Source of the DNA: a virus
Direction: 5' to 3' (one strand)
IMG/VR virus record: IMGVR_UViG_3300029720_000418
Span: 3,344 to 67,343 of that record
DNA: 64,000 bases
In this document: positions 249 to 61,065 of the stretch, piece after piece
Position numbering within the stretch: the stretch's first letter is position 1
How the letters are laid out: each line of letters begins with the position of its first letter
Made by a program: the position numbers and the translations under genes
Notes under the pieces: generated by a model
What the model saw: the letters and a program-made list of their open reading frames with translations, nothing else
What the model was told of the DNA's origin: nothing
Database searches by the model: none

Positions 249-267
249 CACGGGCTCTTCTTTTTAT
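237..267 (+). terminator. rho-independent terminator (EES-stop cassette)
   Basis: AGAGTCC-TAACACG-GGCTCT followed by a T-run. The stem encodes the gene's C-terminal E-S-stop. Confidence 0.5.
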
Positions 268-295
268 TTCGCGAAAATTACATACGCTATTATGA
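268..295 (+). promoter_or_regulatory. conserved promoter-like motif copy
   Basis: TTCGCGAAAATTACATACGCTATTATGA. Confidence 0.5.
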
Positions 296-448
296 GAGAA
301 TAAAGTATGTTTGACCGGCCAATTTATAATTGGTGCTTGCGACAAGATAAACAGGAATCGAAGCGCGTACGGAGTGGAACGCTCAATAAAATTTAACGGT
401 ACGTATACAAAGACTCAGGATCAAAAACTTGAGCATTCTCTTTTCTTT

Positions 449-476
449 TTCGCGAAAATTACATTTCCTATTATGA
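449..476 (+). promoter_or_regulatory. conserved promoter-like motif copy
   Basis: TTCGCGAAAATTACATTTCCTATTATGA. Confidence 0.5.
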
Positions 477-505
477 AAAACAATTCATAAAAAGGAGTGA
501 TTTAT

Positions 506-733
506 ATGATGAATTTATATAATTATTTAGCAGTTATGATTACAGAGCGTATGACTGGATTGGATCATACTTGTCTCAAGATTTGGGATTTTTATACATA
601 TGTGTATACATTATCTACAGTTGAGAAAGCTATGAACATTACAATCATAGGTTTGGTATTAATTACTATATGCGTTATAGCAATCATTGTATTAAACAAA
701 TTTGAGAAGAAATTGAAGAGGGAGGAAGCCTAA
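506..733 (+). CDS. small protein with C-terminal TM segment
   Basis: ATG 8 nt after AAGGAG. Followed by a hairpin plus T-run at 721-755. Confidence 0.5.
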   Translation: MMNLYNYLAVMITERMTGLDHTCLKIWDFYTYVYTLSTVEKAMNITIIGLVLITICVIAIIVLNKFEKKLKREEA

Positions 734-878
734 CATGGGCTTCTTCTCTTTTTATTTTTAATCTAGATTAGAATTTTATATTTTACAACACAGACAAACC
801 CATAATAAATGATATTTTGATATTGGAAAAATTCCCGGGTGGGGTTTTCATAAAAACAAAATGGAAGGAGGAAAACAA

Positions 879-1085
879 ATGGTTGCATTAGCGATTACTT
901 TGGTGATTACCAACATTCTTTGGCTTTTATATTTTCAGTGGTGGCGGAAGAAGAAAACATTGGGATCTATCATTATTACGGACGAAGACTCTTTGTACGT
1001 AGAATTGGAAGATCACGAGTCTATGGATAAGATTCATAAGAGTAAAGATGTTATTTTTTCAGTGCATATGGAATCGCGTAAATAA
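879..1085 (+). CDS. small membrane protein (N-terminal TM)
   Basis: RBS GGAAGGAGG upstream of an internal ATG. The first 25 residues are hydrophobic. Confidence 0.5.
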   Translation: MVALAITLVITNILWLLYFQWWRKKKTLGSIIITDEDSLYVELEDHESMDKIHKSKDVIFSVHMESRK

Positions 1086-1125
1086 CGTGGGCTATTATGA
1101 ATAAAATTTAAGGAGGTATAAAGCA

Positions 1126-1482
1126 ATGGACAAAATTAAGGAAGCATTGTGGAATGACTACGAGGAGAAGAAGGGATTATTGAATGACATGGAACCAGGC
1201 TCAGACGAGTATAAGGTTGTTGCATCAGAAGTCGATAATATCCGGAAAGAGCTTATTGATGTCGATAAGACTGTAGCTGAGAACGAATTTAAGGTTACTC
1301 AGGCGGCAGACGATTCGAAGAAAGAGAAGACTCGGAACCGGATTTCTATCGGAACTTTTATTACATCAACCGCATTATCGTTGTATGCCATTGGAAAGAC
1401 ATTCAAATTTGATTCGTCATCGACAGTCACATCCACATTGGGTCGGAATATTTTGAATGCGTTTATTCCAAAGAAGAGATAA
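1126..1482 (+). CDS. hypothetical protein (118 aa), coiled-coil N-terminus and C-terminal TM
   Basis: RBS TAAGGAGG 8 nt upstream of the ATG. Confidence 0.55.
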   Translation: MDKIKEALWNDYEEKKGLLNDMEPGSDEYKVVASEVDNIRKELIDVDKTVAENEFKVTQAADDSKKEKTRNRISIGTFITSTALSLYAIGKTFKFDSSSTVTSTLGRNILNAFIPKKR

Positions 1483-1524
1483 TTATTCAAAACGGGACGC
1501 TGAGGAAACTTGGCGTCTTAGTTT

Positions 1525-1552
1525 TTCGCGAAATAAACATCGACTATTATGA
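1525..1552 (+). promoter_or_regulatory. conserved promoter-like motif copy
   Basis: TTCGCGAAATAAACATCGACTATTATGA. Confidence 0.5.
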
Positions 1553-1625
1553 AAGGATGATATATAATTATTTATATTATTGTCCTTATCTTAACGGAAA
1601 GGGCTTGCTTTAAGGAGGCAGGTAA

Positions 1626-1781
1626 ATGGAAGATAACATGAAAGAATTTGTTGCATTCAGTAGAAAACTACTGAGAAGTTTGAAAGAACTTCGTGAACTT
1701 CTGGCTAAGGACGATAAGGAATTAGCTTTGAAGAAACTCGATGAGTTGATTGACGATACTCAGAAGGATATTGAAGCATAA
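1626..1781 (+). CDS. small helical peptide (51 aa)
   Basis: Below the ORF-track size cut-off. RBS AGGAGG. It lies between promoter copy 1525-1552 and a terminator at ~1795-1840. Confidence 0.4.
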   Translation: MEDNMKEFVAFSRKLLRSLKELRELLAKDDKELALKKLDELIDDTQKDIEA

Positions 1782-1848
1782 TATCAAGTTATCAGAAATG
1801 GCCTGTGGTTGAAAAATCGCAGGCTCTTTCTTTTTTATATATTTTATT

Positions 1849-2208
1849 ATGAGATATCATTACGAAAAACCAGAACTATACAATTCAATATATGGGCAGA
1901 TATACGAATGTAATCACCCAGTCTATAGCAGGTGCACATTATATTTGATAGGTAATAAGGGCTTAGCTGTGATCCAGCAGCGGTATAATCCGGAGAATAA
2001 AACAACTTGGTGGTCGGAGATAGATCCATGGTTGAATAATGCTTTATATTTACATCCAGGATTTAAGAAGTTTTTCGATGAGAGAGCTGGAGAGCCAGTC
2101 GAAGGATTGTATCCGACCGTATCAGTACGGCAAATCATGTGGGCTTTGAAGATGAAACCAATAAAGCGAGAACGATGGGAAACATGTTTTGATCGGCGAT
2201 ATATTTGA
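1849..2208 (+). CDS. hypothetical protein (119 aa)
   Basis: Long ORF immediately after a terminator. No SD: the ATG sits in a TATTATGAGA -10-like box, so the transcript may be leaderless. Confidence 0.4.
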   Translation: MRYHYEKPELYNSIYGQIYECNHPVYSRCTLYLIGNKGLAVIQQRYNPENKTTWWSEIDPWLNNALYLHPGFKKFFDERAGEPVEGLYPTVSVRQIMWALKMKPIKRERWETCFDRRYI

Positions 2209-2209
2209 A

Positions 2210-2238
2210 TTCGCGTAGAAAACAGAGTGTTTTATGGA
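2210..2238 (+). promoter_or_regulatory. conserved promoter-like motif copy (TAGAAAAC variant)
   Basis: TTCGCGTAGAAAACAGAGTGTTTTATGGA. Confidence 0.45.
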
Positions 2239-2248
2239 GGTGATATTT

Positions 2249-2461
2249 ATGCTTGAACGAATTAAGGCTTATAACCGTCTTAGAAAGAGTAATAAATTCT
2301 TAAAGGGGTGTAAAATAATAGCTGAATTAACAAATGATGATCAAATGATAAAAGCAGCTAACGAAGCACTCTACAAGAACGAAATACTTAAAAGAAAAAT
2401 GTGGTATAAGCGAAAAATGGCGGTATCATACAATTTGGAGTCAATAAAGAATGGGCTTTAA
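2249..2461 (+). CDS. hypothetical small basic protein (70 aa)
   Basis: RBS GGAGGTG. The leader (TTTTATGGAGGTGATATTTATG) and the 3' terminator cassette are duplicated verbatim at 26840-27086. Confidence 0.5.
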   Translation: MLERIKAYNRLRKSNKFLKGCKIIAELTNDDQMIKAANEALYKNEILKRKMWYKRKMAVSYNLESIKNGL

Positions 2462-2466
2462 GAAAT

Positions 2467-2510
2467 AAGATCTAAGACTCAGTGTGGAAATACATTGGGT
2501 CTTTTATTTT
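2467..2510 (+). terminator. rho-independent terminator (cassette duplicated at 27042-27086)
   Basis: GATCTAAGACTCAGTGTGGAAATACATTGGGTCTTTTATTTTT. Confidence 0.5.
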
Positions 2511-2537
2511 TCGCGTAGAAAACATACCCCTTTATGA
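2510..2537 (+). promoter_or_regulatory. conserved promoter-like motif copy (variant)
   Basis: TTCGCGTAGAAAACATACCCCTTTATGA. Confidence 0.45.
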
Positions 2538-2572
2538 AAATAAACTACATTACATAAACGGAGGTATGTATT

Positions 2573-2755
2573 ATGAATATTAAGAAAAAAGAAGCAAAGA
2601 AGATGATTAAATTGTTGGATGATAAGGCAAGATATGCATTGCAAAATATGATGTTTGCGATTGAGCATAAATTACCTATTGAATCGCAGTTTAGAGGAGA
2701 GGCTAAAGCTTATTTGGACTTAAGGGACGAATTAATGCGAGGTTTGAAGAAGTAG
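2573..2755 (+). CDS. hypothetical protein (60 aa)
   Basis: RBS ACGGAGG. Preceded by promoter copy 2510-2537. Confidence 0.5.
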   Translation: MNIKKKEAKKMIKLLDDKARYALQNMMFAIEHKLPIESQFRGEAKAYLDLRDELMRGLKK

Positions 2756-2796
2756 TTATTTGGGAGTAGATTCGACAGAGTCTATTCCTTTTCTTT

Positions 2797-2824
2797 TTCG
2801 CGAAAATTACATGCTGTATTATGA
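2797..2824 (+). promoter_or_regulatory. conserved promoter-like motif copy
   Basis: TTCGCGAAAATTACATGCTGTATTATGA. Confidence 0.5.
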
Positions 2825-2853
2825 GGAAATCAAAGAAAGGAAGGTATATTTAT

Positions 2854-3030
2854 ATGATACTTACAACATTATTAATTATTGCAGCTTTAATAACAATAGT
2901 GGTTTTAGCATTTGCGGTATTAGCCGGAGGTGCAGGATTCTTATTGGTGTTTGGAGATGTAATTGTATTTGTATTGGTGATTGTAGGAATTATTAAATCC
3001 TTAACCAGGAGAAAGAAATCCAAGAAATAG
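2854..3030 (+). CDS. extremely hydrophobic peptide (58 aa)
   Basis: RBS AAGGAAGG. Product is a single long TM stretch with a KK-rich tail. Promoter copy at 2797-2824. Confidence 0.45.
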   Translation: MILTTLLIIAALITIVVLAFAVLAGGAGFLLVFGDVIVFVLVIVGIIKSLTRRKKSKK

Positions 3031-3056
3031 GAGAGCTACGGCTCTCTTATTTTTCG
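3031..3056 (+). terminator. rho-independent terminator (duplicated at 3477-3500)
   Basis: GAGAGCTACGGCTCTC followed by TTATTTTT. Confidence 0.55.
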
Positions 3057-3080
3057 CGAAAAATACTTTCACTATTATGA
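3053..3080 (+). promoter_or_regulatory. conserved promoter-like motif copy
   Basis: TTCGCGAAAAATACTTTCACTATTATGA. Confidence 0.5.
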
Positions 3081-3119
3081 CAATAATAACAGTTTTCATA
3101 AATGAAAGGAGAAAACATT

Positions 3120-3329
3120 ATGATTAAAGCATTGAAGGAGTACAAAGACAAGGTATTGAAACCAGAAATAGCATGGCTGAAAAGACACTGGATTGGGTTC
3201 TTAGTGTATTTGGTAATATGCTTTATTACGGGGTTTGTATCAACGATGGTACGTAATATCAAAGAAAAGAAGAAGCATAATGAAGACGATTATTATGAAG
3301 ATCGTTATGGCAAAGAGGAGGAGTCCTAA
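3120..3329 (+). CDS. small membrane protein (69 aa)
   Basis: RBS GAAAGGAG. Central TM segment. The C-terminal EES is encoded by the terminator stem. Confidence 0.5.
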   Translation: MIKALKEYKDKVLKPEIAWLKRHWIGFLVYLVICFITGFVSTMVRNIKEKKKHNEDDYYEDRYGKEEES

Positions 3330-3345
3330 TGGACTCTTCTTTTTC
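3319..3345 (+). terminator. rho-independent terminator
   Basis: GGAGTCC-TAAT-GGACTC followed by TTCTTTTT. Confidence 0.55.
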
Positions 3346-3370
3346 GCGAAATTTACAAAGCCTATTATGA
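3343..3370 (+). promoter_or_regulatory. conserved promoter-like motif copy
   Basis: TTCGCGAAATTTACAAAGCCTATTATGA. Confidence 0.5.
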
Positions 3371-3400
3371 AAACATATAGGAAAGGAGACAAAATAATTT

Positions 3401-3478
3401 ATGAATGCAGTTATAGCAATATTGGCTGGCGCATTAATTTATGCGATCCTGAACAAGGTGGATAAGGATAAGAAATAG
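3401..3478 (+). CDS. 25-aa hydrophobic micro-peptide
   Basis: Has its own promoter copy (3343-3370), RBS GAAAGGAG and terminator. The terminator GAGAGCTACGGCTCTC is identical to the one after 2854-3030. Confidence 0.3.
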   Translation: MNAVIAILAGALIYAILNKVDKDKK

Positions 3479-3500
3479 GAGAGCTACGGCTCTCTTATTT

Positions 3501-3528
3501 TTCGCAAAATTTTCATTGGCTATTATGA
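3501..3528 (+). promoter_or_regulatory. conserved promoter-like motif copy
   Basis: TTCGCAAAATTTTCATTGGCTATTATGA. Confidence 0.45.
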
Positions 3529-3554
3529 AATAATATTTTTAAGGAGGGCTTAGT

Positions 3555-3758
3555 ATGAAAAAGGCTATTAAAATTATCGGAAAGATTACGAAATGGTATT
3601 TAATATTAGATGCGATTGTATGTGCATATATTGGAGTATGCCGGATGATCCATTTGGTTATGAAATATCCCCAAAAATCTATTCTGGAAATAGACGAAAT
3701 AGCTTTGGATGAGGCTGACGCTGAATTCAAAAAATATTATAACAAATATATTAAATAA
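3555..3758 (+). CDS. small membrane protein (67 aa)
   Basis: RBS TAAGGAGGG. N-terminal TM segment. Confidence 0.5.
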   Translation: MKKAIKIIGKITKWYLILDAIVCAYIGVCRMIHLVMKYPQKSILEIDEIALDEADAEFKKYYNKYIK

Positions 3759-3804
3759 GAGGGCTTCGGCTCTCTTATTTTTCAATAAGAAAGGAGATGA
3801 TCTA

Positions 3805-4584
3805 TTGATCAATGCAAAATTATTTCTCAAAAGACACTCTTCAACAATTTTAGCATGTCTTGGATGTGCAGGGGTTATAGTGACTTCTGTAACGGCTGTA
3901 CGAGCAACCCCAAAGGCTATTAAACTATTAGAAGAAGCCGAAGAAAACAAAGGATCTGAATTAACAACATGGGAAAAAGCCAAGACAACGACGAAAGCAT
4001 ATTTACCGTCGATATTGTTTGGTGTTTCAACCATTGCGTGTATTGCCGGTTCTTCGATTCTTTCATATAACACCCAGAAATCTATGGCAAGTGCATACGC
4101 TTTGATAAATCAATCGTATCGAGATTATCGTAGAAAAGCAAAAGATATTTACGGCGAAGATGCAGATAGAAAGATTCTTGATGCGATCATTGCTGAAAAA
4201 GCGAAGACTATGTACGTAGAAGCTCCTGGTATTTGTGATTGTGCGACCTTATACATCGACGAGAATCACGGAGAGAAACGATTGTTCTACGACGAATATG
4301 GCAAGCGATTCTTTGAATCAACGTTGGAGCAAGTTATATCAGCGGAGTATCATACGAACCGTAATTTTGTATTACGCGGATCACAGATGCTAAATGAATT
4401 CTATGGGTTCCTGGGTTTGGAACCTACTGATTTTGGTTGGGAAGCTGGATGGTGTGTTATGGATGAGTTTTATTGGATTGATTTTGATCATAGTGAAATT
4501 GAAATCGATGGCAAGAAATGTATCGTCATTCGGATGCCATGGGAACCTAAAATCGGATACGACGATGATAATTATTACTATTAA
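3805..4584 (+). CDS. paralog A of a two-TM membrane protein family (with 5150-5929 and 7534-8466)
   Basis: TTG start 8 nt after AAGGAG. Shares the N-terminal motif K-HS..IL..LG.AG..V.AA.ATPKA and a second TM. Also shares the C-terminal FYxxxGL...IGW domain. Confidence 0.6.
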   Translation: MINAKLFLKRHSSTILACLGCAGVIVTSVTAVRATPKAIKLLEEAEENKGSELTTWEKAKTTTKAYLPSILFGVSTIACIAGSSILSYNTQKSMASAYALINQSYRDYRRKAKDIYGEDADRKILDAIIAEKAKTMYVEAPGICDCATLYIDENHGEKRLFYDEYGKRFFESTLEQVISAEYHTNRNFVLRGSQMLNEFYGFLGLEPTDFGWEAGWCVMDEFYWIDFDHSEIEIDGKKCIVIRMPWEPKIGYDDDNYYY

Positions 4585-4612
4585 TTCGCGAAAACAACAT
4601 TTACTATTATGA
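4585..4612 (+). promoter_or_regulatory. conserved promoter-like motif copy
   Basis: TTCGCGAAAACAACATTTACTATTATGA. Confidence 0.5.
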
Positions 4613-4636
4613 AAAATGCAAAAGGAGGGTCTTAAT

Positions 4637-4801
4637 ATGAATAAGGCAGATTTGAAGTTTTTGAGAAAGGCAGGATTTAACATTGCTTTCGGAGTTATCG
4701 TGGGTAAAGAATTAGGCGAATTCGTTACGCAGGTAGCTTATCGATTTGCAATTAAAATGATGGCCAAGAAAACGCCAGAATCAACCAAGACTGAAGAGTA
4801 A
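4637..4801 (+). CDS. hypothetical small protein (54 aa)
   Basis: RBS AAAGGAGGG. Promoter copy at 4585-4612. Confidence 0.45.
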   Translation: MNKADLKFLRKAGFNIAFGVIVGKELGEFVTQVAYRFAIKMMAKKTPESTKTEE

Positions 4802-4890
4802 TTTTCAAATAGAGGATTCAATGGAAATATTGGGTCTTCTATTTTTTCAGCACGAAGACATCTGGAATCAATGATATTTTGATAGCGGGA

Positions 4891-4919
4891 TTCGCACGAA
4901 ATACATTGGCTATTATGGA
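4891..4919 (+). promoter_or_regulatory. conserved promoter-like motif copy
   Basis: TTCGCACGAAATACATTGGCTATTATGGA. Confidence 0.45.
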
Positions 4920-4936
4920 AAGGAGGTAAGCTATCT

Positions 4937-5110
4937 ATGAAAGAAAAGTTTAATTCAACGACAGTTTTGAGCGCCGTTGTAACTGCGATGGGAGTGATTG
5001 GAACATTACTTTCATTTAAGGTTCAGAACGATGATCGGGAACTGTTGAAGGAAGAATTAAAAGAAGAGCTTAGAGAAGAGCTTAGCAACGAAGATAAAGA
5101 GGAGTCCTAA
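4937..5110 (+). CDS. small membrane peptide (57 aa) with an EELKEELREEL acidic tail
   Basis: RBS AGGAGGTAAG. Promoter copy at 4891-4919. Ends in the GAGGAGTCCTAA terminator stem. Confidence 0.4.
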   Translation: MKEKFNSTTVLSAVVTAMGVIGTLLSFKVQNDDRELLKEELKEELREELSNEDKEES

Positions 5111-5149
5111 CACGGGCTCTTCTTTTATATTTGATAGGAGGAATCAAAC

Positions 5150-5929
5150 ATGAGTAAAGAATCATTTGCGAGATTTGTGAAAAGCACAAAAAGAGGTCTC
5201 GTAAAACACAGTCCGGAAATCTTAACCGGATTAGGAATCGCAGGAATGATATCATCTGTCGTTCTTGCAGCAAAAGCAACACCTAAAGCACTTCAGTTGA
5301 TTGAAGAAGCGAAGGATAAGGCGGATACAGACAAGCTTACAGTACCAGAAACAATCAAGGCAGCATGGAAGCCATATATTCCAGTTGTACTTACATGTGG
5401 TGCATCCGTAGCTTGTATCATTGGTGCCAATACGGTAAATACACGTCGTAATGCTGCTCTTGCTACAGCATATGAGCTCTCGAGAAATGCTCTGACCGAG
5501 TATAAGGAGCGTGTTGTAGAGGAGATCGGTAAGGAAAAGGAACAGAAGATACAGGAAAAGGTTGCTCAGAAAAAAGTAGACAATACACCTGTTACATCCG
5601 AGGTTATTGTAACTGGAGGCGGGGACATATTGTTCCTTGAACCTGTATCAGAGAGATATTTCAAATCCGATGTTGAGACTATTCGTAGAATCATCAACGA
5701 TTTGAACTATCGATTAATGAATGGCAGCGAGGAGTATGTATCGTTGAGTGATTTCTATGATGAAGTCGGTTTGACTCATACGGCAATCAGTAATGATATT
5801 GGGTGGAATTTGAATCATGATGGTCAGATATCGGTCAGCTTGCCCGCAACAAAGACAGACAAGGGAGAGCCATGCCTGATGTTGGATTATCATGTAGCAC
5901 CGCGGTACGATTATTCAAAATTATCGTAA
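5150..5929 (+). CDS. paralog B of the two-TM membrane protein family
   Basis: RBS GGAGGAAT. N- and C-terminal similarity to 3805-4584 and 7534-8466 is visible by eye. Confidence 0.65.
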   Translation: MSKESFARFVKSTKRGLVKHSPEILTGLGIAGMISSVVLAAKATPKALQLIEEAKDKADTDKLTVPETIKAAWKPYIPVVLTCGASVACIIGANTVNTRRNAALATAYELSRNALTEYKERVVEEIGKEKEQKIQEKVAQKKVDNTPVTSEVIVTGGGDILFLEPVSERYFKSDVETIRRIINDLNYRLMNGSEEYVSLSDFYDEVGLTHTAISNDIGWNLNHDGQISVSLPATKTDKGEPCLMLDYHVAPRYDYSKLS

Positions 5930-5957
5930 TTCGCGAAAAATACAAGCACTATTATGA
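5930..5957 (+). promoter_or_regulatory. conserved promoter-like motif copy
   Basis: TTCGCGAAAAATACAAGCACTATTATGA. Confidence 0.5.
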
Positions 5958-5992
5958 CAGAGTAAAAAATTATATTTAAGGAGGACGAAACT

Positions 5993-21519: not shown

Positions 21520-21780
21520 ATGATTAAATTAAGAGATTTATTACAACAGTGTAGTTGCGATGTTTATATTTTTGGAAATGGTAACTGTCCATGCCCAGAA
21601 ATAAAACTTCCAAAACCGCTTGTGAAGGCGGAAAAATATTTGAATGCTGATATTTTGAATCAGGGTGTGCGGAATATATCCATATGTGATGGACATTTGC
21701 AGGTTTGGCTGGAAGATAAATCTATTCAAGACGTTGTTGATTCTAAGTTAAAAGAAATGGAGGATGAAAGTAATGAGTAA
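21520..21780 (+). CDS. hypothetical Cys-rich protein, paralog of 23488-23685
   Basis: Both proteins start MIKLxDLL and share a ...VWLE C-terminal motif. RBS AAGGAGG. Confidence 0.5.
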   Translation: MIKLRDLLQQCSCDVYIFGNGNCPCPEIKLPKPLVKAEKYLNADILNQGVRNISICDGHLQVWLEDKSIQDVVDSKLKEMEDESNE

Positions 21781-22510
21781 TATGTTAGATTGGGCTAAAA
21801 AGGAAGTTGAAATTGCATGTAAGAAAGAAAATCCAAACAGAAAAGATGGAGAGTTTGATTATGGATGTGCCTGTTACGAGAGCGCATTAAAAGCTTTTCA
21901 AAGCTTATGCGAAGATGATCATTCTGGTTTCAGTATTAGAATGACTCAGGCGATATTGAATCGGCTCATAAATGGTAAACCATTAACACCGATTGAGGAT
22001 ACCGACGAGGTATGGAGTGATATTTCTGATATGAGTGGTCTGAAGGGAGAAGAGCGTAACTATCAGTGCAAACGCATGTTTTCCTTATTTAAGTATGTAT
22101 ATGCTGACGGAACTGTCAAGTACAAGGATAATAACCATTCATACTGTGTCAGCATTCATAACTGCAATGATACATATTCTTTTGTAATGGTTGAAAGAAT
22201 TATTGACGAGATGTTTCCTATAACAATGCCGTATATGCCAGGAAAACCAATCGAAGTTTATTGCGAAGATTTCTTAACAGATAAAAAGAACGGCGATTTT
22301 GATACTGTCGGAGTGTTCTATGCGCTGAAAACAGAGGATGGTAAACAGGAGAAGATTGAGATTAACAGATTCTTCAGAGAACCAGAAGGCGATGAAGAGG
22401 GTAACTGGACTGAGATATCTAAGGAAGAATATTACGAGAGGAAGGAGAGACAGATAACTGCTGCTGATATTTCAAGAGAGATTAAAGAAGCAATGGAGGA
22501 TGAGAAGTAA
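21773..22510 (+). CDS. hypothetical protein (~245 aa)
   Basis: ATG 8 nt after GGAGGA. The alternative start 21764 is in the same frame. Confidence 0.55.
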   Translation: MSNMLDWAKKEVEIACKKENPNRKDGEFDYGCACYESALKAFQSLCEDDHSGFSIRMTQAILNRLINGKPLTPIEDTDEVWSDISDMSGLKGEERNYQCKRMFSLFKYVYADGTVKYKDNNHSYCVSIHNCNDTYSFVMVERIIDEMFPITMPYMPGKPIEVYCEDFLTDKKNGDFDTVGVFYALKTEDGKQEKIEINRFFREPEGDEEGNWTEISKEEYYERKERQITAADISREIKEAMEDEK

Positions 22511-22603: not shown

Positions 22604-23446
22604 ATGAAAAAATATGAATTAACAAATGAAACAATCGAATATAAAGGAAAAAAATTATATAGAATTAAGGCTCTAATTGATTTTGGAAATGTAGAAAAAG
22701 GAGCTCGTGGTGGGTTCGTTGAAAAAGAGGAAAATCTTAGTATGTCTGGTAATGCTTGGGTATGTGATAATGCTCGGGTATGTGATAATGCTCGGGTATG
22801 TGGAGATGCTAATGTGTGTGGTGATGCTTTTGTGTCTGATAATGCTCAGGTGTCTGGTGATGCTTTTGTGTGTGGTAATGCTTGGGTATGTGATAATGCT
22901 CGGGTATGTGGAGATGCTAATGTGTGTGGTAATGCTTGGGTATGTGATAATGCTCAGGTGTCTGGTGATGCTCGGGTGTCTGGTAATGCTCAGGTGTCTG
23001 GTGATGCTCGGGTATGTGATAATGCTCGGGTATGTGATAATGCTCGGGTATGTGGAGATGCTAATGTGTGTGGTGATGCTTTTGTGTCTGATAATGCTCA
23101 GGTGTCTGGTGATGCTTTTGTGTGTGGTAATGCTTGGGTATGTGGTGGTGCTAATGTGTGTGGAGATGCTAATGTGTGTGGTGATGCTAATGTGTGTGGT
23201 GATGCTCAGGTGGATAAGAGCATCAATTATGCCGTGATCAAAGGTTTCGGCACTTGTTATAGATCTACGACATTTTTCAGATGTCAAGACAAAACAGTAA
23301 AAGTATCCTGCGGATGTTTTTTAGGAACCATCGACGAATTCAGAAATCAAGTAAAAAACACGCGTGGAGGAAAAATTGCAAAAGAATATTTAATGATTGC
23401 TGATCTAATGGAAATACATTTTTCGGAGGATGGATACGATGGTTAA
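22604..23446 (+). CDS. Cys-rich hexapeptide-repeat (left-handed beta-helix-like) protein with a globular C-terminal domain
   Basis: About 27 consecutive hexads of [GDN][DN]A[RWFNQ]V[CS], encoded by 18-bp tandem DNA repeats at 22744-23215. RBS AAAGGAG. Confidence 0.6.
   Translation: MKKYELTNETIEYKGKKLYRIKALIDFGNVEKGARGGFVEKEENLSMSGNAWVCDNARVCDNARVCGDANVCGDAFVSDNAQVSGDAFVCGNAWVCDNARVCGDANVCGNAWVCDNAQVSGDARVSGNAQVSGDARVCDNARVCDNARVCGDANVCGDAFVSDNAQVSGDAFVCGNAWVCGGANVCGDANVCGDANVCGDAQVDKSINYAVIKGFGTCYRSTTFFRCQDKTVKVSCGCFLGTIDEFRNQVKNTRGGKIAKEYLMIADLMEIHFSEDGYDG
22744..23215 (+). repeat. 18-bp tandem repeat array (~27 units) encoding the hexapeptide repeats
   Basis: The unit GG(T/A)(G/A)ATGCTNNNGT(G/A)T(G/C)T recurs. 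A ~140-bp higher-order block (22743-22890) is duplicated at ~23020-23150. Confidence 0.7.
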
Positions 23447-23487: not shown

Positions 23488-23685
23488 ATGATTAAATTAG
23501 AAGATTTACTTGCTGTTGCAAAAAACAATATAGCAATAATGAATGGTAGCTTTCAATCGATTGTGGTTAATGTTTGTCATCTCGAAGACTTGCCGTTACC
23601 TGATAGTCTATTAAAACGTAACATAAAAGAAATGGAAGCAAAAGATGATATTATTTTAGTTTGGTTGGAAGGGTATGGTGATTAG
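23488..23685 (+). CDS. hypothetical protein, paralog of 21520-21780
   Basis: ATG after AGAAAGGAG. Starts MIKLEDLL and contains ...VWLE. Confidence 0.5.
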   Translation: MIKLEDLLAVAKNNIAIMNGSFQSIVVNVCHLEDLPLPDSLLKRNIKEMEAKDDIILVWLEGYGD

Positions 23686-23687
23686 AA

Positions 23688-23963
23688 ATGATTAAATTGG
23701 AAAACGTGGTTCTGGCGAGTCCGGAGCAGATGGATTTTATTATTGAAGGTATGCGGAATCCTATGAATTCGTGGGATAGGAGTGATAGTTATATTGATGC
23801 GCCCAATAAAAATTGTAATGGTCAATCTGGAGATTCTTTCCATGTGTTAGGAGACAACGATCACGACTTGATGCAGCGCTTGGCAGATGCTGGATCGGTT
23901 CATAGAAAGTATATGCGGATGATGCCGGTATATGTGAGAATCACAGCACCTTTATATTGGTAG
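23688..23963 (+). CDS. ThyX-like (flavin-dependent thymidylate synthase family) N-terminal fragment
   Basis: Follows the ThyX N-terminal pattern up to ...VRITAPLYW (compare VKAPIFVARQW). It then hits a stop. The RHR/SxRY core is not present in this ORF. Confidence 0.45.
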   Translation: MIKLENVVLASPEQMDFIIEGMRNPMNSWDRSDSYIDAPNKNCNGQSGDSFHVLGDNDHDLMQRLADAGSVHRKYMRMMPVYVRITAPLYW

Positions 23964-24066
23964 TTCTTTCTGCCAATGAAACACTTTTCCTAGTTATCGC
24001 TAGGGGTCACATTTTGTGGCTAACGGGGAACCACCCATTGGAATCCCGTGGGAAACATTTCAAATA

Positions 24067-24094
24067 TTCGCGAAATTTACAAGGTGTATTATGA
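24067..24094 (+). promoter_or_regulatory. conserved promoter-like motif copy inside the ThyX interruption
   Basis: TTCGCGAAATTTACAAGGTGTATTATGA. Confidence 0.5.
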
Positions 24095-24284
24095 GAGAAT
24101 AGACACTCGAAAGGGCAGTGAAGTTTGAGGATCCAAGCATCATTGGAAACTAATCGGGAAGGAGATAATAGTGAAAACTATGCACGAGGCTAGATCGAAA
24201 GATGAACTATATTGAAAGATATACCATGAGCCTGAGGGAAATATCGGCGTCCTTCGAGTGGAATTGATGTATTCTCTTTTCTTT

Positions 24285-24312
24285 TTCGCGAAAATTACAT
24301 CTCCTATTATGA
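24285..24312 (+). promoter_or_regulatory. conserved promoter-like motif copy inside the ThyX interruption
   Basis: TTCGCGAAAATTACATCTCCTATTATGA. Confidence 0.5.
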
Positions 24313-24326
24313 AAGGAGTGATATTT

Positions 24327-24515
24327 ATGGCAAAAGAATATATTGTTAAAGCGACTAAGTACGGAAGAGACTGGAAAAAAATAGGAGAGGGTATTGATTT
24401 TCTAGAAGATAATAAAAAATATCGACTAGAATTTCATGCTACTGGATTAATCCAGGCTATCCGAGTAAAAATAGCGTTTAAACAAAATAAACGGTTTAAA
24501 TATTACACTTATTGA
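24327..24515 (+). CDS. small protein (62 aa) within the ThyX interruption
   Basis: Has its own promoter copy (24285-24312), RBS AAAGGAGTG and a downstream terminator at ~24520-24560. Confidence 0.4.
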   Translation: MAKEYIVKATKYGRDWKKIGEGIDFLEDNKKYRLEFHATGLIQAIRVKIAFKQNKRFKYYTY

Positions 24516-24756
24516 AAGAGGGACTCAGCAATAACGCTGGGTCTTTTCTCTTTTATATTTTGCGACGAATATCAAAATGAACCTGTAGAGGCTATCCCCT
24601 ATGCCTTCTGGGCGGGGGAGTAGGGCTACTATTGATACGTAGCTGGGTTTTAGGAAACGAAGCCCATGAAAACCGAAATGGTGTCCTATTGTTTATATTA
24701 TTGTGTGTGAAAAATTATGGTGGATTTATATTTTATAGAAAGAGAGGTGATATAGA

Positions 24757-25197
24757 ATGACAGAAAATTATTTAAGTCATCATGGAGTAAAAGGACAGAA
24801 GTGGGGTGTTAGAAAAGAAATATATAATTCGTCAAGTAGATCTCGCAAAAGAGAGATAAGAAAGGAATACTATAAGACCCCAGAAGGACAAATTAAAAAG
24901 GCAACTACTAAAGCTACAATGTTAGGTGGCCCATTGGCTGGTATTATTGCCGGACAAATAACTTTAAGAAAAGTTAGAAGAAAAATAGACGCTACAAAAA
25001 ATAATAAATTGTCATCTGTCGATAAAGACACTATAGAAAAAGGAAAGAAAAAAGTAGAAGCTCTTCCAAATAACCGCAAGATAGAAACAGATGAGCAAAA
25101 GATAAAACGTCTTATGTCAGAAGGGAAAATAAATCCGAAAGCTAATCATATATTTGACCAAAATGGGAATTTGATGATGGTTTACTGGGATGATTAA
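24757..25197 (+). CDS. lysine-rich basic protein, HHGVxGxKWGVR family member 1
   Basis: N-terminal LSHHGVKGQKWGVRK. Paralogs at 35712-36347 and 38137-38676. RBS GAGAGGTGA. Confidence 0.6.
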   Translation: MTENYLSHHGVKGQKWGVRKEIYNSSSRSRKREIRKEYYKTPEGQIKKATTKATMLGGPLAGIIAGQITLRKVRRKIDATKNNKLSSVDKDTIEKGKKKVEALPNNRKIETDEQKIKRLMSEGKINPKANHIFDQNGNLMMVYWDD

Positions 25198-25296
25198 TTA
25201 TGATAAGCACACAAAAACAATAGTAAAAGATAGTCCATTAATGGGAAAGAATTTGATACATATAAGGTAGGTACTGTCGCAAACTCTTGCAGTACG

Positions 25297-25734
25297 ATGC
25301 ACAAGATTGCTGAGAAAGAATTTACGCTGGAAGATTTTAGCTGTGAGCATTTGATTTCAGACTGGATCGGAGATAATAACGATGCTATCTGGTATAAAGA
25401 CCCGCCTAAAAATGGATCGATTGAATGCCCGATAATATTTTCTCCTCTGGATGCTTTAAGAACCACTATTGGAGTATTAAATACGAACCGAGAAGCTTAT
25501 CTTAAAACAAAAGACAAAAAGTTCTGGTGGCAGATGATTCAGCTTCTTCCGAGTAGTTATAACCAGACACGTAATGTCATGATGAATTATGAGGTGCTGG
25601 CAAATATTTATCGGTGGAGAAAAGATCATAAGCTGGACGAATGGCGAGAGTTTTGTAAGTGGATCGAGGGCTTGCCATATGGTGAGCTGATTACTGGATT
25701 ACCTATTGAATCCGATGATGCAGACGAAGATTAA
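25297..25734 (+). CDS. ThyX-like C-terminal fragment
   Basis: LLPSSYNQTRNVMMNYEVLANIYRWRKDHKLDEW aligns with the ThyX segment LPxxxxTxxxxxxNxRxLxNFxxLRxDxHAQxEI. The open frame extends upstream to 25234. Confidence 0.45.
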   Translation: MHKIAEKEFTLEDFSCEHLISDWIGDNNDAIWYKDPPKNGSIECPIIFSPLDALRTTIGVLNTNREAYLKTKDKKFWWQMIQLLPSSYNQTRNVMMNYEVLANIYRWRKDHKLDEWREFCKWIEGLPYGELITGLPIESDDADED

Positions 25735-25745
25735 GGAGGAATATT

Positions 25746-25970
25746 ATGATAGGAGTTAAATTAACTATTGTTCTATTTGTAATAACAGTAGTATCAATAA
25801 TTGTTATTACAGCAGTTGTTAGAGCATTGGATTTTAAAACTAAGTTTTTAATCAGTTTAGGTGAAGGACCAAAATGGCTTGAAAATGTTTTAACATTTCT
25901 AGGGTTCTTGGAGCTTTTAGATTTCATTGGAGTCATATATTCAGTTATATGGCTCTTATTTTTTAGGTAG
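25746..25970 (+). CDS. small membrane protein (2 TM)
   Basis: ATG after GGAGGAATATT. Hydrophobic. Confidence 0.45.
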   Translation: MIGVKLTIVLFVITVVSIIVITAVVRALDFKTKFLISLGEGPKWLENVLTFLGFLELLDFIGVIYSVIWLLFFR

Positions 25971-25981: not shown

Positions 25982-26521
25982 ATGGCAGAATTAAATCCTA
26001 AAACAGATGCGACAAAGAAAGTCATACATTTAATGGTTACACCATTATGTAATAGAAATTGTAGGTATTGTTGTAATAAACAATATGATATAAATGATAT
26101 TTCTTATGTTACCGATGAGGAATTAAGAGAAGCTGAGGTTCTTTGCTTAACGGGCGGGGAACCTTTTTTGTTTACGGATCCATGTTGGATCGCCCGGCAT
26201 TACAAAAGGAGATATTCAAACATAAAAAAAGTATATGTATATACTAATGCCAAAGAATTATATCTTTGGTTAGCGGGTTACAATCTCATACATAATATTG
26301 ACGGCTTGAATGTCTCTATTAAAAACAAAGATGATTTATATTTCTTCAAAGAACTTGTTCACAATTATCAAAATCAAATTTGTGTTGATAATTGCATGAG
26401 TAATCGAGTTTATATTTTTGATAGTTTGATTCCCGATGACCTTGGAATATTTGAACCAATTATTCGGGAATGGCAGGAAGATTTTAAACCAGCGCCTGAT
26501 AGTATATTTAGAAGATTATAA
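25982..26521 (+). CDS. radical SAM enzyme (small, QueE/NrdG-like size class)
   Basis: CxxxCxxC (CNRNCRYC) near the N-terminus. Glycine-rich LTGGEPFL SAM-binding motif. RBS GGAGGAAT. Confidence 0.65.
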   Translation: MAELNPKTDATKKVIHLMVTPLCNRNCRYCCNKQYDINDISYVTDEELREAEVLCLTGGEPFLFTDPCWIARHYKRRYSNIKKVYVYTNAKELYLWLAGYNLIHNIDGLNVSIKNKDDLYFFKELVHNYQNQICVDNCMSNRVYIFDSLIPDDLGIFEPIIREWQEDFKPAPDSIFRRL

Positions 26522-26865: not shown

Positions 26866-27042
26866 ATGAATAAGGATCTAATATATGATACTTTAGATTG
26901 CATGAGAGGTATTAAAAAGAAATATCCGTGGATACCTAAATTTATCATACGGAGAGTTCTTTTTGCAGAAGAATGTTACATGCATAAAATTGGTATTATT
27001 GATTGGAAACCTGATCTAAAAAGTTGGTATTTTAAGAAATAA
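26866..27042 (+). CDS. hypothetical small protein (58 aa)
   Basis: Uses the same promoter/leader/terminator cassette as 2249-2461. Confidence 0.45.
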   Translation: MNKDLIYDTLDCMRGIKKKYPWIPKFIIRRVLFAEECYMHKIGIIDWKPDLKSWYFKK

Positions 27043-27086
27043 GATCTAAGACTCAGTGTAGAAATACATTGGGTCTTTTATTTTTA
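27042..27086 (+). terminator. rho-independent terminator (duplicate of 2467-2510)
   Basis: Identical to the 2467-2510 cassette apart from one base. Confidence 0.5.
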
Positions 27087-35337: not shown

Positions 35338-35715
35338 ATGAGCGAAGTCACAAATGCGAACGACAGCATTCTTACATCAATCAAGAAGATTCTTGGAATA
35401 CCAGAAGAGCATGAACACTTTGATGCGGATATCATTATGCATATCAACACAGTTTTTATGATTCTCAATCAACTTGGTGTCGGACCTGCTTCTGGTTTTA
35501 AGATTCTGGATAAAACTACGATGTGGGACGACTATTTGAAAGATGATAGTCAGTTAGAAGCTGTGAAATCTTATATGGGCTATAAAGTTCGATTGATGTT
35601 TGACCCTCCATCAAGCTCAGCCATCACAGAGTCAATTAATCGTGTTGTTAGTGAGCTTGAATGGCGAATACTTGTGATGGTCGAAAGTAAAAATTCTCGA
35701 GAGGAGGAATCATGA
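35338..35715 (+). CDS. hypothetical protein (125 aa)
   Basis: ATG 7 nt after GAGGAGG. A terminator at 35291-35320 precedes it. Confidence 0.5.
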   Translation: MSEVTNANDSILTSIKKILGIPEEHEHFDADIIMHINTVFMILNQLGVGPASGFKILDKTTMWDDYLKDDSQLEAVKSYMGYKVRLMFDPPSSSAITESINRVVSELEWRILVMVESKNSREEES

Positions 35716-36347
35716 TGTACGAATATGTATTATGCCATCATGGTGTTCTTGGTATGAAATGGGGTGTCCGTAGATACCAGAATGCTGATGGAAGTCTTAC
35801 GTATGCTGGAAAGAAACGAGCATTGAAAATCCAGAATAAATATACAAATTTTACGGAGAATCAAAAGTATCGAAAGAAGAATGGCGACTATACATATGCC
35901 GGTCGTAAGAAGTCTTTGAAGATGCGAGAGAAGTATTCAGCTGTTACTGGCGGAAAGAAGTTGACAAAGTTTGTTCCACCATCACAGCCAGCAAGTTCTG
36001 GAAAACCCAAAACATTAGCAGAAATGTCAAACAAAGAGATCGCAGATAAGATCGATAGAATTAGATTGGAGAATACTCTTAAATCACTTACTCCGCAGAA
36101 AGTTTCAAAAGGTAAAAAATTTGCAGATGGGATGAAGTCGTTAGCGGTTTCGACATTGAAAGGTCCTGCAACAAAAATAGCAAGCGAGTATATCGAAAAG
36201 AAATTACGATCAAAACTTGATTTAGGAGATCCGAATACTAAGAAAAAAGAGTCAGAAAAATTACAGCAGGAAATGTTGGATGCTAGAAATAGATATAATA
36301 TTGAAAACTTCACAAAGTTGTATAACGACTTGAAAAATAAGAAATAG
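35712..36347 (+). CDS. lysine-rich basic protein, HHGVxGxKWGVR family member 2
   Basis: N-terminal LCHHGVLGMKWGVRRY. RBS GAGGAGGAA. Confidence 0.6.
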   Translation: MMYEYVLCHHGVLGMKWGVRRYQNADGSLTYAGKKRALKIQNKYTNFTENQKYRKKNGDYTYAGRKKSLKMREKYSAVTGGKKLTKFVPPSQPASSGKPKTLAEMSNKEIADKIDRIRLENTLKSLTPQKVSKGKKFADGMKSLAVSTLKGPATKIASEYIEKKLRSKLDLGDPNTKKKESEKLQQEMLDARNRYNIENFTKLYNDLKNKK

Positions 36348-36359: not shown

Positions 36360-38123
36360 ATGGCATTATCGAACACCGCCACCCCACGATACTACGGCGA
36401 GTTTCGAGATGCCGTACTTCGAGGCGAAATCCCGGTAAATGAAAAAATCGAGATGGAAATGAATCGAATAGACGCGTTGATACAGAATCCTGGCGTCTAC
36501 TACGATGATAAGGCAATAGATGGGTTTATTGCTTATTGTGAAAAAGAATTGGTTCTAACAAATGGCGATGATCTACATTTATTGGATTCATTTAAACTGT
36601 GGGCTGAGCAGATTTTTGGATGGTATTATTTTGTAGAGAGAAGTGTATATGTGCCATCAAAAGATGGACACGGGGGGCACTATGCGAGAAAACGAATTAA
36701 GAAGCGGCTTATAAATAAGCAGTATTTAATAGTTGCAAGAGGTGCAGCAAAATCTATGTATGCTTCCTGCATTCAAAACTATTTCTTGAATGTCGATACA
36801 TCCACAACACATCAGGTCACAACAGCTCCAACAATGCCACAAGCGGAAGAGGTTATGTCACCGATCAAGACAGCCATAACCAGAGCGAGAGGGCCGCTAT
36901 ATCAATTTCTTACTTATGGGTCATTGCAGAATACGACTGGTTCAAAAGCTGACCGAGTAAAGCTTGCCAGCACGAAGAAGGGGATTCAGAATTTCTTGAC
37001 CGGATCATTATTGGAAGTAAGACCAATGTCGATTGACAAGCTTCAGGGTTTACGTGTAAAGATAGCTACTGTGGATGAATGGTTATCAGGAGATGTCCGG
37101 GAAGATGTAATTGGTGCGTTGGAGCAGGGTGCCGCTAAGGAACAGGGCGGAGGAATGAATGACGACTACCTTATTGTAGCGATTTCCTCCGAAGGAACTG
37201 TCCGTAATGGTTCAGGAGATACAATCAAAATGGAATTGATGAGTATATTAAAAGGCGAGTACAATGCTCCGCATACATCGATATGGTGGTATGCTCTTGA
37301 TTCTGTCGATGAAGTATCAGATCCGGATTTATGGATAAAAGCAAATCCAAACCTTGGAAAAACTGTAAGTTATGAAACGTATCAGCTGGATGTCGAGAGA
37401 GCCGAAAAGAATCCGGCAGTTCGGAATGATATTTTGGCAAAGAGATTCGGTATACCCATGGAGGGTTATACATATTACTTCACATATGAAGAAACTCTTC
37501 CGCATAGAAAGAAAGAGTATTGGCAAATGCCATGTTCAATGGGAGCAGATCTTTCTCAGGGCGATGATTTCTGTTCTTTCGCATTTCTATTTCCATTATC
37601 TAATGGAGAATTCGGCGTAAAAACAAGAAACTACATAACCGAGCTTACTTTAAATAAGCTGCCTTCGGCTATGAGAATTAAATATGAAGAATTTATGAAT
37701 GAAGGAAGTCTTATTGTCATGGATGGAAACATTCTCGATATGATGCAGGTATTCGACGATTTGGACGAATACATCCTGTCTATTGGCTACGATGTTCGGT
37801 GTTTTGGATATGATCCATACAATGCTAAAGAATTTGTGGAAAGATGGGCAAGAGAAAATGGTCCATTTGGCATTGAGAAAGTAATACAGGGAACAAAGAC
37901 CGAGTCAGTCCCATTAGGTGAATTAAAGAAGTTATCAGAAGAGAGAATGCTACTGTTCGATGAGAAGCTTATGACCTTTGCGATGGGAAACTGTATTGTC
38001 ATGGAGGATACGAATGGAAACCGTAAGCTTCTGAAGAAACGACATGATGCGAAGATCGATGCTGTAGCGGCTATGATGGATGCCTTTGTCGCATTCAAAC
38101 TGAATCGAGAAGCATTTGAATAA
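36360..38123 (+). CDS. terL: terminase large subunit
   Basis: N-terminal ATPase (VARGAAKS P-loop-like, DEW) and C-terminal RNaseH-like nuclease (KRHDAKIDAVAAMMDAF). Length and position are typical. Confidence 0.8.
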   Translation: MALSNTATPRYYGEFRDAVLRGEIPVNEKIEMEMNRIDALIQNPGVYYDDKAIDGFIAYCEKELVLTNGDDLHLLDSFKLWAEQIFGWYYFVERSVYVPSKDGHGGHYARKRIKKRLINKQYLIVARGAAKSMYASCIQNYFLNVDTSTTHQVTTAPTMPQAEEVMSPIKTAITRARGPLYQFLTYGSLQNTTGSKADRVKLASTKKGIQNFLTGSLLEVRPMSIDKLQGLRVKIATVDEWLSGDVREDVIGALEQGAAKEQGGGMNDDYLIVAISSEGTVRNGSGDTIKMELMSILKGEYNAPHTSIWWYALDSVDEVSDPDLWIKANPNLGKTVSYETYQLDVERAEKNPAVRNDILAKRFGIPMEGYTYYFTYEETLPHRKKEYWQMPCSMGADLSQGDDFCSFAFLFPLSNGEFGVKTRNYITELTLNKLPSAMRIKYEEFMNEGSLIVMDGNILDMMQVFDDLDEYILSIGYDVRCFGYDPYNAKEFVERWARENGPFGIEKVIQGTKTESVPLGELKKLSEERMLLFDEKLMTFAMGNCIVMEDTNGNRKLLKKRHDAKIDAVAAMMDAFVAFKLNREAFE

Positions 38124-38136
38124 AGGAGGAAACACA

Positions 38137-38676
38137 ATGTACGAGAATGAATTATATCATCATGGTGTTCTTGGTATGAAATGGGGTGTTAGAAAAGCAT
38201 ACCATCGAGTAAGCCAAAATGATCGTTTACAGAAGAGAGCTTTTAATTATGATAAAAAGTCTGCTGTAGCAACAAAAAAATCAGAAAAAATACACGCAAA
38301 GAAAGATCTGGCACGATCAAACAGAAATGCAATACGTTCTGCAAAATATGCTAAAAAATCTTCAGTTCTTAATAAAAAAGCTTTGAAACTCGATGACGGG
38401 TATAAGCGAAGTATGCTCGAACGAAAAGCAGCTAATTTAAGTTTTAAATCCGCTAAAAAGAAGATAAAAGCTGATAGAATTTCCAAGACAAAGGGTTACG
38501 GTGCACGGGCGTTAAAGTATTCCATAAAATCAGATAAGTTTATCATGAAAGCACAAAAAATGCGGAAGAAATTGGCTTCTAATAACGCTTATATGGAAAA
38601 AATGAATAGAAAAGTAAACTCGCTTCCAAAAGATAAGATCGAAGAAGTGCGGGCATATATGAACAGTTTTTCGTAA
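38137..38676 (+). CDS. lysine-rich basic protein, HHGVxGxKWGVR family member 3
   Basis: N-terminal LYHHGVLGMKWGVRKAY. RBS AAGGAGG. Confidence 0.6.
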   Translation: MYENELYHHGVLGMKWGVRKAYHRVSQNDRLQKRAFNYDKKSAVATKKSEKIHAKKDLARSNRNAIRSAKYAKKSSVLNKKALKLDDGYKRSMLERKAANLSFKSAKKKIKADRISKTKGYGARALKYSIKSDKFIMKAQKMRKKLASNNAYMEKMNRKVNSLPKDKIEEVRAYMNSFS

Positions 38677-60895: not shown

Positions 60896-61065
60896 GGCGA
60901 ATGCCCGAGACCGACTCGAAGCGAAGCGCAGAGGAGGTTGCACGGCGAATGATTTCCTGTTTATTTTTTATTCTAAGTATTCTCTAAGCCATTCCACAAC
61001 GTTTGCCGTGTATGTGGATTCGGTTATATCTTGTATATTATTTTCCACAAAATGTAAATCTGGGC

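Follow-up and report, generated by a model that had tools for sequence, protein, structure and literature searches.

The closest described relative of the element reported here is the td intron of phage T4, a group I intron of subgroup IA2 associated with I-TevI, and the open reading frames (ORFs) within T4 introns are known to have promoters of their own. Group II introns start with GUGYG, end with AY, and contain domain V and a reverse-transcriptase ORF. The IStrons of Clostridioides difficile are group I introns fused to an IS605-family transposon, in which the cargo is a 3'-end transposase/TnpB module that moves the element. The present analysis deals with an insertion of 1,282 nt at positions 23962-25243 of a 64,000-nt stretch of viral DNA (positions 3,344 to 67,343 of the IMG/VR record IMGVR_UViG_3300029720_000418), hereafter referred to as the window. 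This insertion is very probably a mobile intron of group I that lies within a Trp codon of a phage gene for a protein of ThyX-like fold and whose IA2-like core is related to that of the T4 td intron.

Position of the insertion and the interrupted gene

The window segment 23400-26000 was compared by blastn with 80 loci fetched by protein family (L-numbers below are labels of fetched related loci). For about 60 intron-less loci, the alignment ended at position 23961 and restarted at 25244 with adjacent coordinates in the subject sequence, such as 4256|4257 in L010 and 4271|4272 in L004, indicating that the insertion occupies exactly 23962-25243. The first-pass annotation, made from the window sequence alone, had placed the insertion at 23964-25296 and had proposed a comparison with intact relatives; that comparison proved informative, and it moved both boundaries. 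The nearest relatives of the window phage, L008, L010 and L029, all have an empty site. The target in intron-less loci reads ...TATATTGGTGGAAAGAATTTG..., and the consensus of occupied sites is ...TGGT | A...AATG | GGAARGA..., at the same position in every copy of which both ends were located. The inserted sequence starts with AGTTC and ends with ...ATTAATG, its terminal G being position 25243. The intron, both exons and all helices described below are on the + strand.

As had been noticed in the annotation, the upstream ORF (23688-23963, 91 aa) ends abruptly with ...VRITAPLYW and a stop codon, and the C-terminal part is held by a downstream frame, which follows the stop at 25231-25233, reads SINGKEFDTYKVGTVANSCSTMHKIAEKEF... 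and continues to 25734. The two pieces match different parts of one protein family, phrog_6721, the N piece covering profile positions 7-82 and the C piece 101-215. Exon 1 (23688..23961) ends with T23961, the first position of a Trp codon, and exon 2 (25244..25734, up to the stop codon) starts with GG at 25244-45, which finishes this codon and is followed by KEFDTYKVGTVANSCSTMH... In the unspliced RNA, intron bases 1-2 (AG) after T23961 form an in-frame TAG; joining T23961 to GG25244-45 gives TGG and restores ...APLYW-W-KEFDTYKVGTVANSCSTMH. The predicted sequence of the ligated junction is CCTTTATATTGGTGGAAAGAATTTG, divided at the exon boundary as ...CCTTTATATTGGT|GGAAAGAATTTGATAC. The fused product of 254 aa aligns without gaps with intact homologues, and since those of L002, L003 and L001 read ...TAPLYWWKEADTYSVGT... 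and ...TAPMYWWKEYDTYKVGTVANSTSTMH..., a single Trp codon, not about 20 residues, lies between the two window pieces. The earlier statement that a stretch of this length with the catalytic motif is missing from both pieces was therefore mistaken: KEFDTYKVGTVANSCST is encoded at 25246-25296, on the 5' side of the ATG chosen by ORF callers.

An inert DNA insertion that breaks the gene into a pseudogene, or a locus producing two separate polypeptides of 91 and 145 aa, would agree with the two ORFs of these sizes that gene callers list on many contigs, and with the in-frame TAG directly after exon 1. Both are very improbable. The 17 codons between the 3' splice site (25246) and the first ATG of the second ORF (25297) would go untranslated in a two-polypeptide gene, yet they include columns invariant in the family, and inspection of the sequence revealed no ribosome-binding site before ATG 25297; together these observations argue against a pseudogene and against a two-polypeptide gene. 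The fused exons form a continuous reading frame in nearly all of the ~50 intron-bearing alleles with a placeable junction (some of these frames leave the contig end or are without a detected start), and the motif APLYWWKEFDTYKVGT.ANS.STMH is kept in all of these alleles. The dN/dS ratio between the window and other intron-bearing alleles is 0.10-0.15, an approximate value with synonymous sites near saturation. An inert insertion agrees neither with this ratio nor with the conserved and covarying RNA structure within the inserted sequence, described in the next section, and the suggestion of a pseudogenised or repurposed thyX thus found no support.

Based on the fused sequence, we can also consider the nature of the host protein. 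Its earlier description as the product of a split ThyX-like gene held in part: the match of both pieces to one family stands, but Pfam Thy1 (PF02511) gave no match at E<=10 in 35 family members, nor at E<=1 for either half, and PDB sequence searches with profiles A1 and A2 gave none. The identity to ThyX, the flavin-dependent thymidylate synthase, is 8-12%. The signature motif of ThyX is RHR...SxRY, and TYK...STMH, which by eye we take to stand at the corresponding position, is present in all aligned homologues of the host protein. With TYK...STMH in place of the signature, thymidylate synthase activity is very unlikely for the host protein despite its ThyX fold; the RHR codons that the annotation had expected to arise by splicing are not created, the whole family carrying TYK...STMH. 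The family is large (>8,000 members) and unannotated, and the genes neighbouring the ThyX-fold gene differ among phages. The persistence of a presumably homing intron within this gene marks the host protein as important.

Core structure and group I assignment

The intron sequences of 24 distinct family members, with the three variable loops replaced by N, were aligned (alignment A3), and the resulting model consists of 76 base pairs in 13 helices. Standard pairs account for 97.9% of the cells in these 24 members; sliding the partners by 1-3 columns lowers the figure to 38-49%. Compensatory changes, affecting both sides of a pair, were detected in 31 of the 76 pairs, and the observed covariation score was reached in 0 of 500 shuffles. 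In the window copy, all 76 pairs are standard.

The 5' splice site is contained in P1, formed between exon 1 (23956-61, ATTGGT) and an internal guide (23972-77, GCCAAT); P1 is 93.8% paired in the 24 members, and the U23961·G23972 pair at the splice site is present in every one of them. P10, of 8 bp, connects TTCTTTCT in the P1 loop (23964-71) with GGAAAGAA of exon 2 (25244-51) and is 97.4% paired. P3 (23981-85, ACACU, with 24680-84, GGUGU) is 100% paired, showing compensatory UA/CG (13:11) and AU/GC (19:5) changes. Between the 5' strand of P3 and P4 there are two hairpins, h2 (23989-93 / 24000-04, four compensatory pairs) and h3 (24005-10 / 24016-21, three compensatory pairs), the loop of h3 being a site of cargo in relatives such as L045. 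The P4-P5 hairpin at 24023-24049, ACGGGG-AA-CCA(cccat)UGG-AA-UCCCGU, is composed of P4 (24023-28 / 24044-49), which is invariant in the set, and P5 (24031-33 / 24039-41), which covaries as CCA/UGG, CCC/GGG, CUU/AAG and CUA/UAG. The P6 element (24050..24584) is closed by GGG (24050-52) and CCU (24582-84), with compensatory changes, and is extended by CAUUU (24056-60) with AAAUG (24575-79) and by AUAUUCG (24064-70) with CGAAUAU (24566-72). In compact relatives, P6 is a short hairpin.

The 3' part of the core starts with P7, in which 24588-95 (G-A bulge-GGCUAU) pairs with 25230-36 (AUAGUCC); P7 is invariant except for one A/G position, which stays paired (AU/GU). G24588 pairs with C25236, A24589 is bulged, and G24590 pairs with C25235, the last being, from the sequence, a candidate for the guanosine-binding pair. 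The P7 5' strand is separated from the P3 3' strand by three hairpins: the P7.1-like h6 (24596-24618, four compensatory pairs), the P7.2-like h7 (24625-24643, three compensatory pairs) and an extra hairpin, h8 (24644-24666, four compensatory pairs). P8 is formed by CUAUUGUUU (24686-94) and UUGUGUGU (24701-08) with GCACACAA (25207-14) and AAACAAUAG (25215-23), again with compensatory changes. The remaining segment, 25224..25243, contains J8/7 (UAAAAG), the P7 3' strand and a 7-nt tail to the terminal G, and the P9 hairpin is absent. Two other pairings were rejected, GGGCTA at 24623 as a P7 strand, its bases forming the covarying hairpin h7, and CCCC/GGGG as P3, both strands covarying locally as h6. 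The GC-richer segments pointed out in the annotation are real: the GC content is 0.43-0.46 at 23950-24100 and 24550-24700, and the cargo has only 0.28-0.35; the folding of 24560-24715 and 24095-24285 in isolation gave unremarkable z-scores of -1.6 and -1.4.

This arrangement shows the topology of group I introns, with a P3/P7 pseudoknot, P4-P5-P6 between its 5' strands and P8 between its 3' strands in the 24 sequences, together with the U·G pair formed by the U preceding the 5' splice site, P10 and the terminal G (G25243). In addition, the T4 td intron has a number of sequence blocks in common with the window intron. The P4/P5 block is CUAACGGGGAACC...AAUCCCGUG here and CUAAACGGGGAACC...AAUCCCGUG in td, the window hairpin being nearly identical to the td block AACGGGGAACC...AAUCCCGUG. 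P7 resembles GACUAU...AUAGUC of td, and the two introns have ACUAUCCC..GGGGAGUAGGG in common over P7 and P7.1, the respective sequences being RCUAUCCCC...GGGGGAGUAGGG here and GACUAUCCC...GGGGAGUAGGG in td. CGAAA precedes the P3 3' strand in both introns, and J8/7 with the P7 3' strand reads AAAGAUAGUC here and GAGAUAUAGUC in td, with AGAUA..GUC shared. These blocks indicate an IA2-like core. As for group II, the intron starts with AGUUC and ends with UAAUG, no Rfam group II model matched, and no reverse-transcriptase domain was found in its ORFs.

A number of observations weigh against the assignment to group I. Neither RF00028 nor any other intron family of Rfam matched the window intron or L045 at E<=10; at E<=1, the compact members L119 and L144 and the intron region of the window likewise matched no intron family, and a scan of the whole window at gathering thresholds gave no match. 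The weak matches obtained in E-value mode (CRISPR repeat, snoRNA, small RNAs) are chance matches. The same scan detected RF00028 in T4 td (40.3 bits, E 9e-8) and nrdB (35.7 bits, E 2e-6), so that the group I and II model search proposed in the annotation, taken alone, would have led wrongly away from an intron. The canonical order P1-(P2)-P3-J3/4-P4 is not observed, the P3 5' strand being located ahead of h2 and h3; a third hairpin, h8, is present on the 5' side of the P3 3' strand; and only 7 nt between P7 and the terminal G leave no P9. P4, P7, P1 and P10 vary little or not at all and are thus supported by sequence and position, not by covariation. The apparent conservation of the core was inflated by the use of exact intron patterns for collecting the family (see below). 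The exact fused protein was absent from a collection of 15 billion proteins, an exact look-up that serves as proxy for spliced RNA assemblies. Finally, half of the core and exon 2 lie downstream of an intrinsic terminator on the sense strand (stem-loop at 24518-24547 plus T-run).

The absence of any Rfam match, even for compact members, together with the unusual strand order of P3 and the absent P9, could also be taken to indicate a ribozyme class distinct from group I that merely resembles it. That is hardly probable: td has similar blocks at P4/P5, P7/P7.1, the P3 3' strand and J8/7 with the P7 3' strand, and group I introns show the same order of the P3/P7 pseudoknot, P4-P6 and P8, as well as the U·G splice site, P10 and the terminal G. 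Assignment to group I thus remains the preferred reading, and the failure of the Rfam group I model has a practical consequence, in that genes carrying this intron are annotated as two unrelated ORFs.

Spread of the intron family and cargo of its loops

Family members were collected with exact intron patterns of 22-26 nt. An exact 26-mer from the GC-rich 5' segment was found in 62 viral contigs, and a 3'-end pattern gave about 30 further loci plus seven true prophage copies, the hosts being Blautia glucerasea MSK.18.94 (L180), Lachnospiraceae, Oscillospiraceae, Pilosibacter, Clostridia and one metagenome-assembled genome labelled 'Bacilli'. Three loci matching the 3' pattern by chance (L183, L185 and L186) were rejected. 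The family is thus widespread in phages and prophages of gut Clostridia, with ~50 copies fetched, from hosts including Blautia, Lachnospiraceae and Oscillospiraceae. At one and the same position, about 50 occupied alleles exist against about 60 empty ones, a presence/absence polymorphism. The intron core is 92-99% identical (with the one exception of L158, 84%) where the exons are only 64-74% identical, a difference that fits horizontal spread, although collection by exact intron patterns inflates the identity of the core.

The length of the intron ranges from 262-277 nt (L174, L168, L108, L144 and L087) to 2,277 nt (L134). In compact members without cargo, four segments conserved in the window (23962-24010, 24016-24063, 24575-24708 and 25204-25243) are contiguous, and longer members have insertions at only three sites, the loops of h3, P6 and P8. 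The members of 262-269 nt, among them L174 (262 nt) and L108 (269 nt), should be convenient for ribozyme or structural work. Orphan copies of the 3' half of the core, beginning with the P7 5' strand and ending with the P8 5' strand, were found at 5540-5670 of L012 and 5521-5654 of L047, 96-98% identical and located between gene cassettes ~0.8 kb downstream of an intron-less allele; these are probably relics of recombination. A free-standing small-RNA gene had been considered for this segment (segment C), which stands alone in L012 and L047, and was rejected, the compact introns showing it to be the 3' half of the ribozyme.

Two unrelated types of homing-endonuclease candidate occur in the P6 loop of different family members. 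One is an ORF with GIY-YIG and NUMOD-like domains in L146 and L152 (Pfam E 5.7e-13). The other is an ORF of 233 aa in L158, L164, L155, L166, L171, L088, L093 and L124, which matches PHROGs annotated as HNH, homing or intron-encoded nuclease (E 1e-30 to 3e-19), and which carries repeated CxC...CGC zinc-ribbon-like motifs and has no Pfam match. NCBIfam gave nothing for the cargo ORFs, the fused protein or the 233-aa ORF of L158. In the window copy, no endonuclease was detected among the ORFs of the intron by Pfam, PHROG and NCBIfam searches.

The cargo of the P6 loop in the window (24058..24574, + strand) consists of a promoter-like repeat (24058-24111), a non-coding segment of 170 nt (24100-24275) without homologue in any fetched locus, a second promoter-like repeat (24276-24329), an ORF of 62 aa (24327-24515) and the terminator mentioned above. 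The loop of P8 contains a gene for a DUF7211 ('HHGV') protein of 146 aa (24757-25197, Pfam E 2.4e-8). Both promoter copies and both ORFs recognized in the annotation are therefore real components of the insertion, and the covarying group I-type core, together with the homing endonucleases of relatives, supports the annotation's proposal of a cargo-carrying self-splicing intron or mobile insertion. In L014 and L025, the 62-aa cassette stands by itself as a gene immediately 5' of the intron-less allele, and the DUF7211 cassette is found in the P8 loop also of L091, L134, L142 and L101. Two paralogues of the latter in the window (35712-36347 and 38116-38676), with 88% identity between their first 66 nt, flank the gene for the terminase large subunit (36360-38123); a literature search on DUF7211 found nothing. 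A promoter-like repeat precedes the non-coding segment, which is closed by CACTCGAAAGG/CCTTCGAGTG, has three hairpins capped with GAAA and may represent a small RNA.

The promoter-like repeat, TTCGCGAAAATTACA-N6-7-TATTATGA, is present in about 16 copies in the window, mostly within the early region of 0.2-6 kb (10 copies at 259-5974, and others at 17832, 24064, 24282, 26828 and 30055). It includes the palindrome TTCGCGAA and is usually followed by AAGGAG and ATG, and the early region is composed of cassettes of promoter, ORF and terminator. A scan with the sigma-70 consensus does not call the repeat, which may therefore act as an operator or as a promoter specific to the phage. Contigs with the identical exon-1 product carry one of two different blocks in the P6 loop: the block of the window in L187, which is 100% identical to window positions 23600-25800, and another block, with ORFs of 63 and 65 aa, in L188 and L192. 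Recombination at the shared promoter-like and terminator sequences may thus shuffle cassettes into and out of the intron loops. Three loops that accept phage cassettes with their own promoter-like repeats and terminators would represent an unusual route of accessory-gene transfer.

From the structural model, the following order of events can be proposed. After transcription, the guide (23972-77) would pair with the last six bases of exon 1 to form P1, with U·G at the splice site, and the strand 23964-71 would pair with the first eight bases of exon 2 to form P10. The core would then fold through the P3/P7 pseudoknot, P4-P5, P6, the P7.1- and P7.2-like hairpins and P8. A guanosine bound at P7 would initiate two transesterifications, by which T23961 is joined to G25244, leading to the protein of 254 aa. 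Insertions are accommodated in the terminal loops of h3, P6 and P8. The homing endonuclease (GIY-YIG or HNH-like) encoded in the P6 loop of some relatives would spread the intron to empty alleles; in the window, the P6 and P8 loops instead carry ordinary early-gene cassettes of the phage lineage.

The terminator within the P6 loop raises the concrete question of transcription termination inside an intron, and similar sense-strand terminators are located in many relatives just before the core resumes. If efficient, such terminators would keep exon 2 and the 3' half of the ribozyme from being transcribed; termination may be leaky, or antitermination or splicing in two pieces may occur. One reading is that the window copy belongs to a true intron family but splices poorly or not at all, the ThyX-fold gene being largely silenced and the intron serving mainly as a carrier of cassettes. 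In agreement with this reading, the terminator precedes the P6 3' strand, P7, the P3 3' strand, P8 and exon 2, the 1-kb cargo has promoter-like repeats of its own, and the fused protein is missing from the protein collection. We consider it unlikely, because the window copy retains all 76 core pairs, each of the two cargo blocks is enclosed by long closing stems, the exons are intact with a dN/dS of ~0.1 against other cargo-bearing alleles, and many family members with such terminators retain intact exons. A further reading, equally doubtful, is that the intron is a docking platform for promoter-ORF-terminator cassettes, in which the sense-strand terminators cut the ribozyme transcript within the P6 loop and the exons are ligated with the aid of phage antitermination or by trans splicing; in the trans-splicing version, the long stems of P6 or P8 would hold the 5' transcript together with one started at an internal promoter. 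If true, expression of the ThyX-fold protein would be tied to the transcription programme of the phage.

As for the surroundings, a gene 1.2 kb upstream of the ThyX-fold gene (21764-22510) encodes a match to Pfam Tad3, the type I Thoeris inhibitor (E 3.3e-32), and 41 of the fetched related loci contain a homologue. The gene is followed by a beta-solenoid (YdcK-repeat) protein gene (22604-23446), whose DNA shows a strict 18-nt periodicity with 22 repeat copies. Two genes downstream of the ThyX-fold gene is that of a 179-aa radical-SAM-like protein (25982-26521), which accompanies the ThyX-fold gene in only 3 of 80 protein-anchored related loci. L187 (ENA ERZ27256490, contig k119_208221) is a contig of 318 kb; given its identity to the window over the intron region, the window probably represents a prophage located within a bacterial contig. 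The samples from which further contigs with this exon-1 product originate are labelled human gut metagenome. A terminator-like sequence of 55 nt is duplicated at 2457-2511 and 27031-27085 (98% identity, 24.6 kb apart), and tandem repeats are located late in the window (113 nt x3 at 61057-61395 and 63 nt x2 at 56967-57092). No tRNA or tmRNA was found by scanning, and megablast of the intron region against GenBank phages gave no match.

Comparison with known introns

Like T4 td, the window intron is found in a phage gene encoding a protein with a fold of the nucleotide-metabolism type. A U paired to G precedes the 5' splice site in both introns, G is the last intron base, P7 and the P3 3' strand are separated by hairpins, and the P6 loop contains an ORF; like td, some relatives of the window intron carry a GIY-YIG endonuclease in this loop. 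Unlike td, in which the order is P1-P2-P3-J3/4-P4, the P3 5' strand of the window intron directly follows P1 and precedes two hairpins, an extra hairpin is present before the P3 3' strand, and P9, P9.1 and P9.2 are all lacking. The window copy differs from td also in that it is without endonuclease and has unrelated gene cassettes in two loops, and RF00028, which detects td, does not detect the window intron family. We know of no described group I subgroup with such an arrangement of helices. A rearranged core, with a displaced P3 strand, an extra hairpin and no P9, informs on the tolerance of the group I fold.

Transposon-encoded introns are the subject of PMC10690162. The likeness to IStrons is that a group I intron of Clostridia carries cargo other than a homing endonuclease. 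No transposase was detected among the ORFs of the window intron by the Pfam, PHROG and NCBIfam searches. In contrast to the transposase/TnpB module at the 3' end of IStrons, the cargo of the window family is composed of small promoter-ORF-terminator cassettes within the loops of h3, P6 and P8. The element of the window is a structurally atypical, new group I intron with non-endonuclease cargo.

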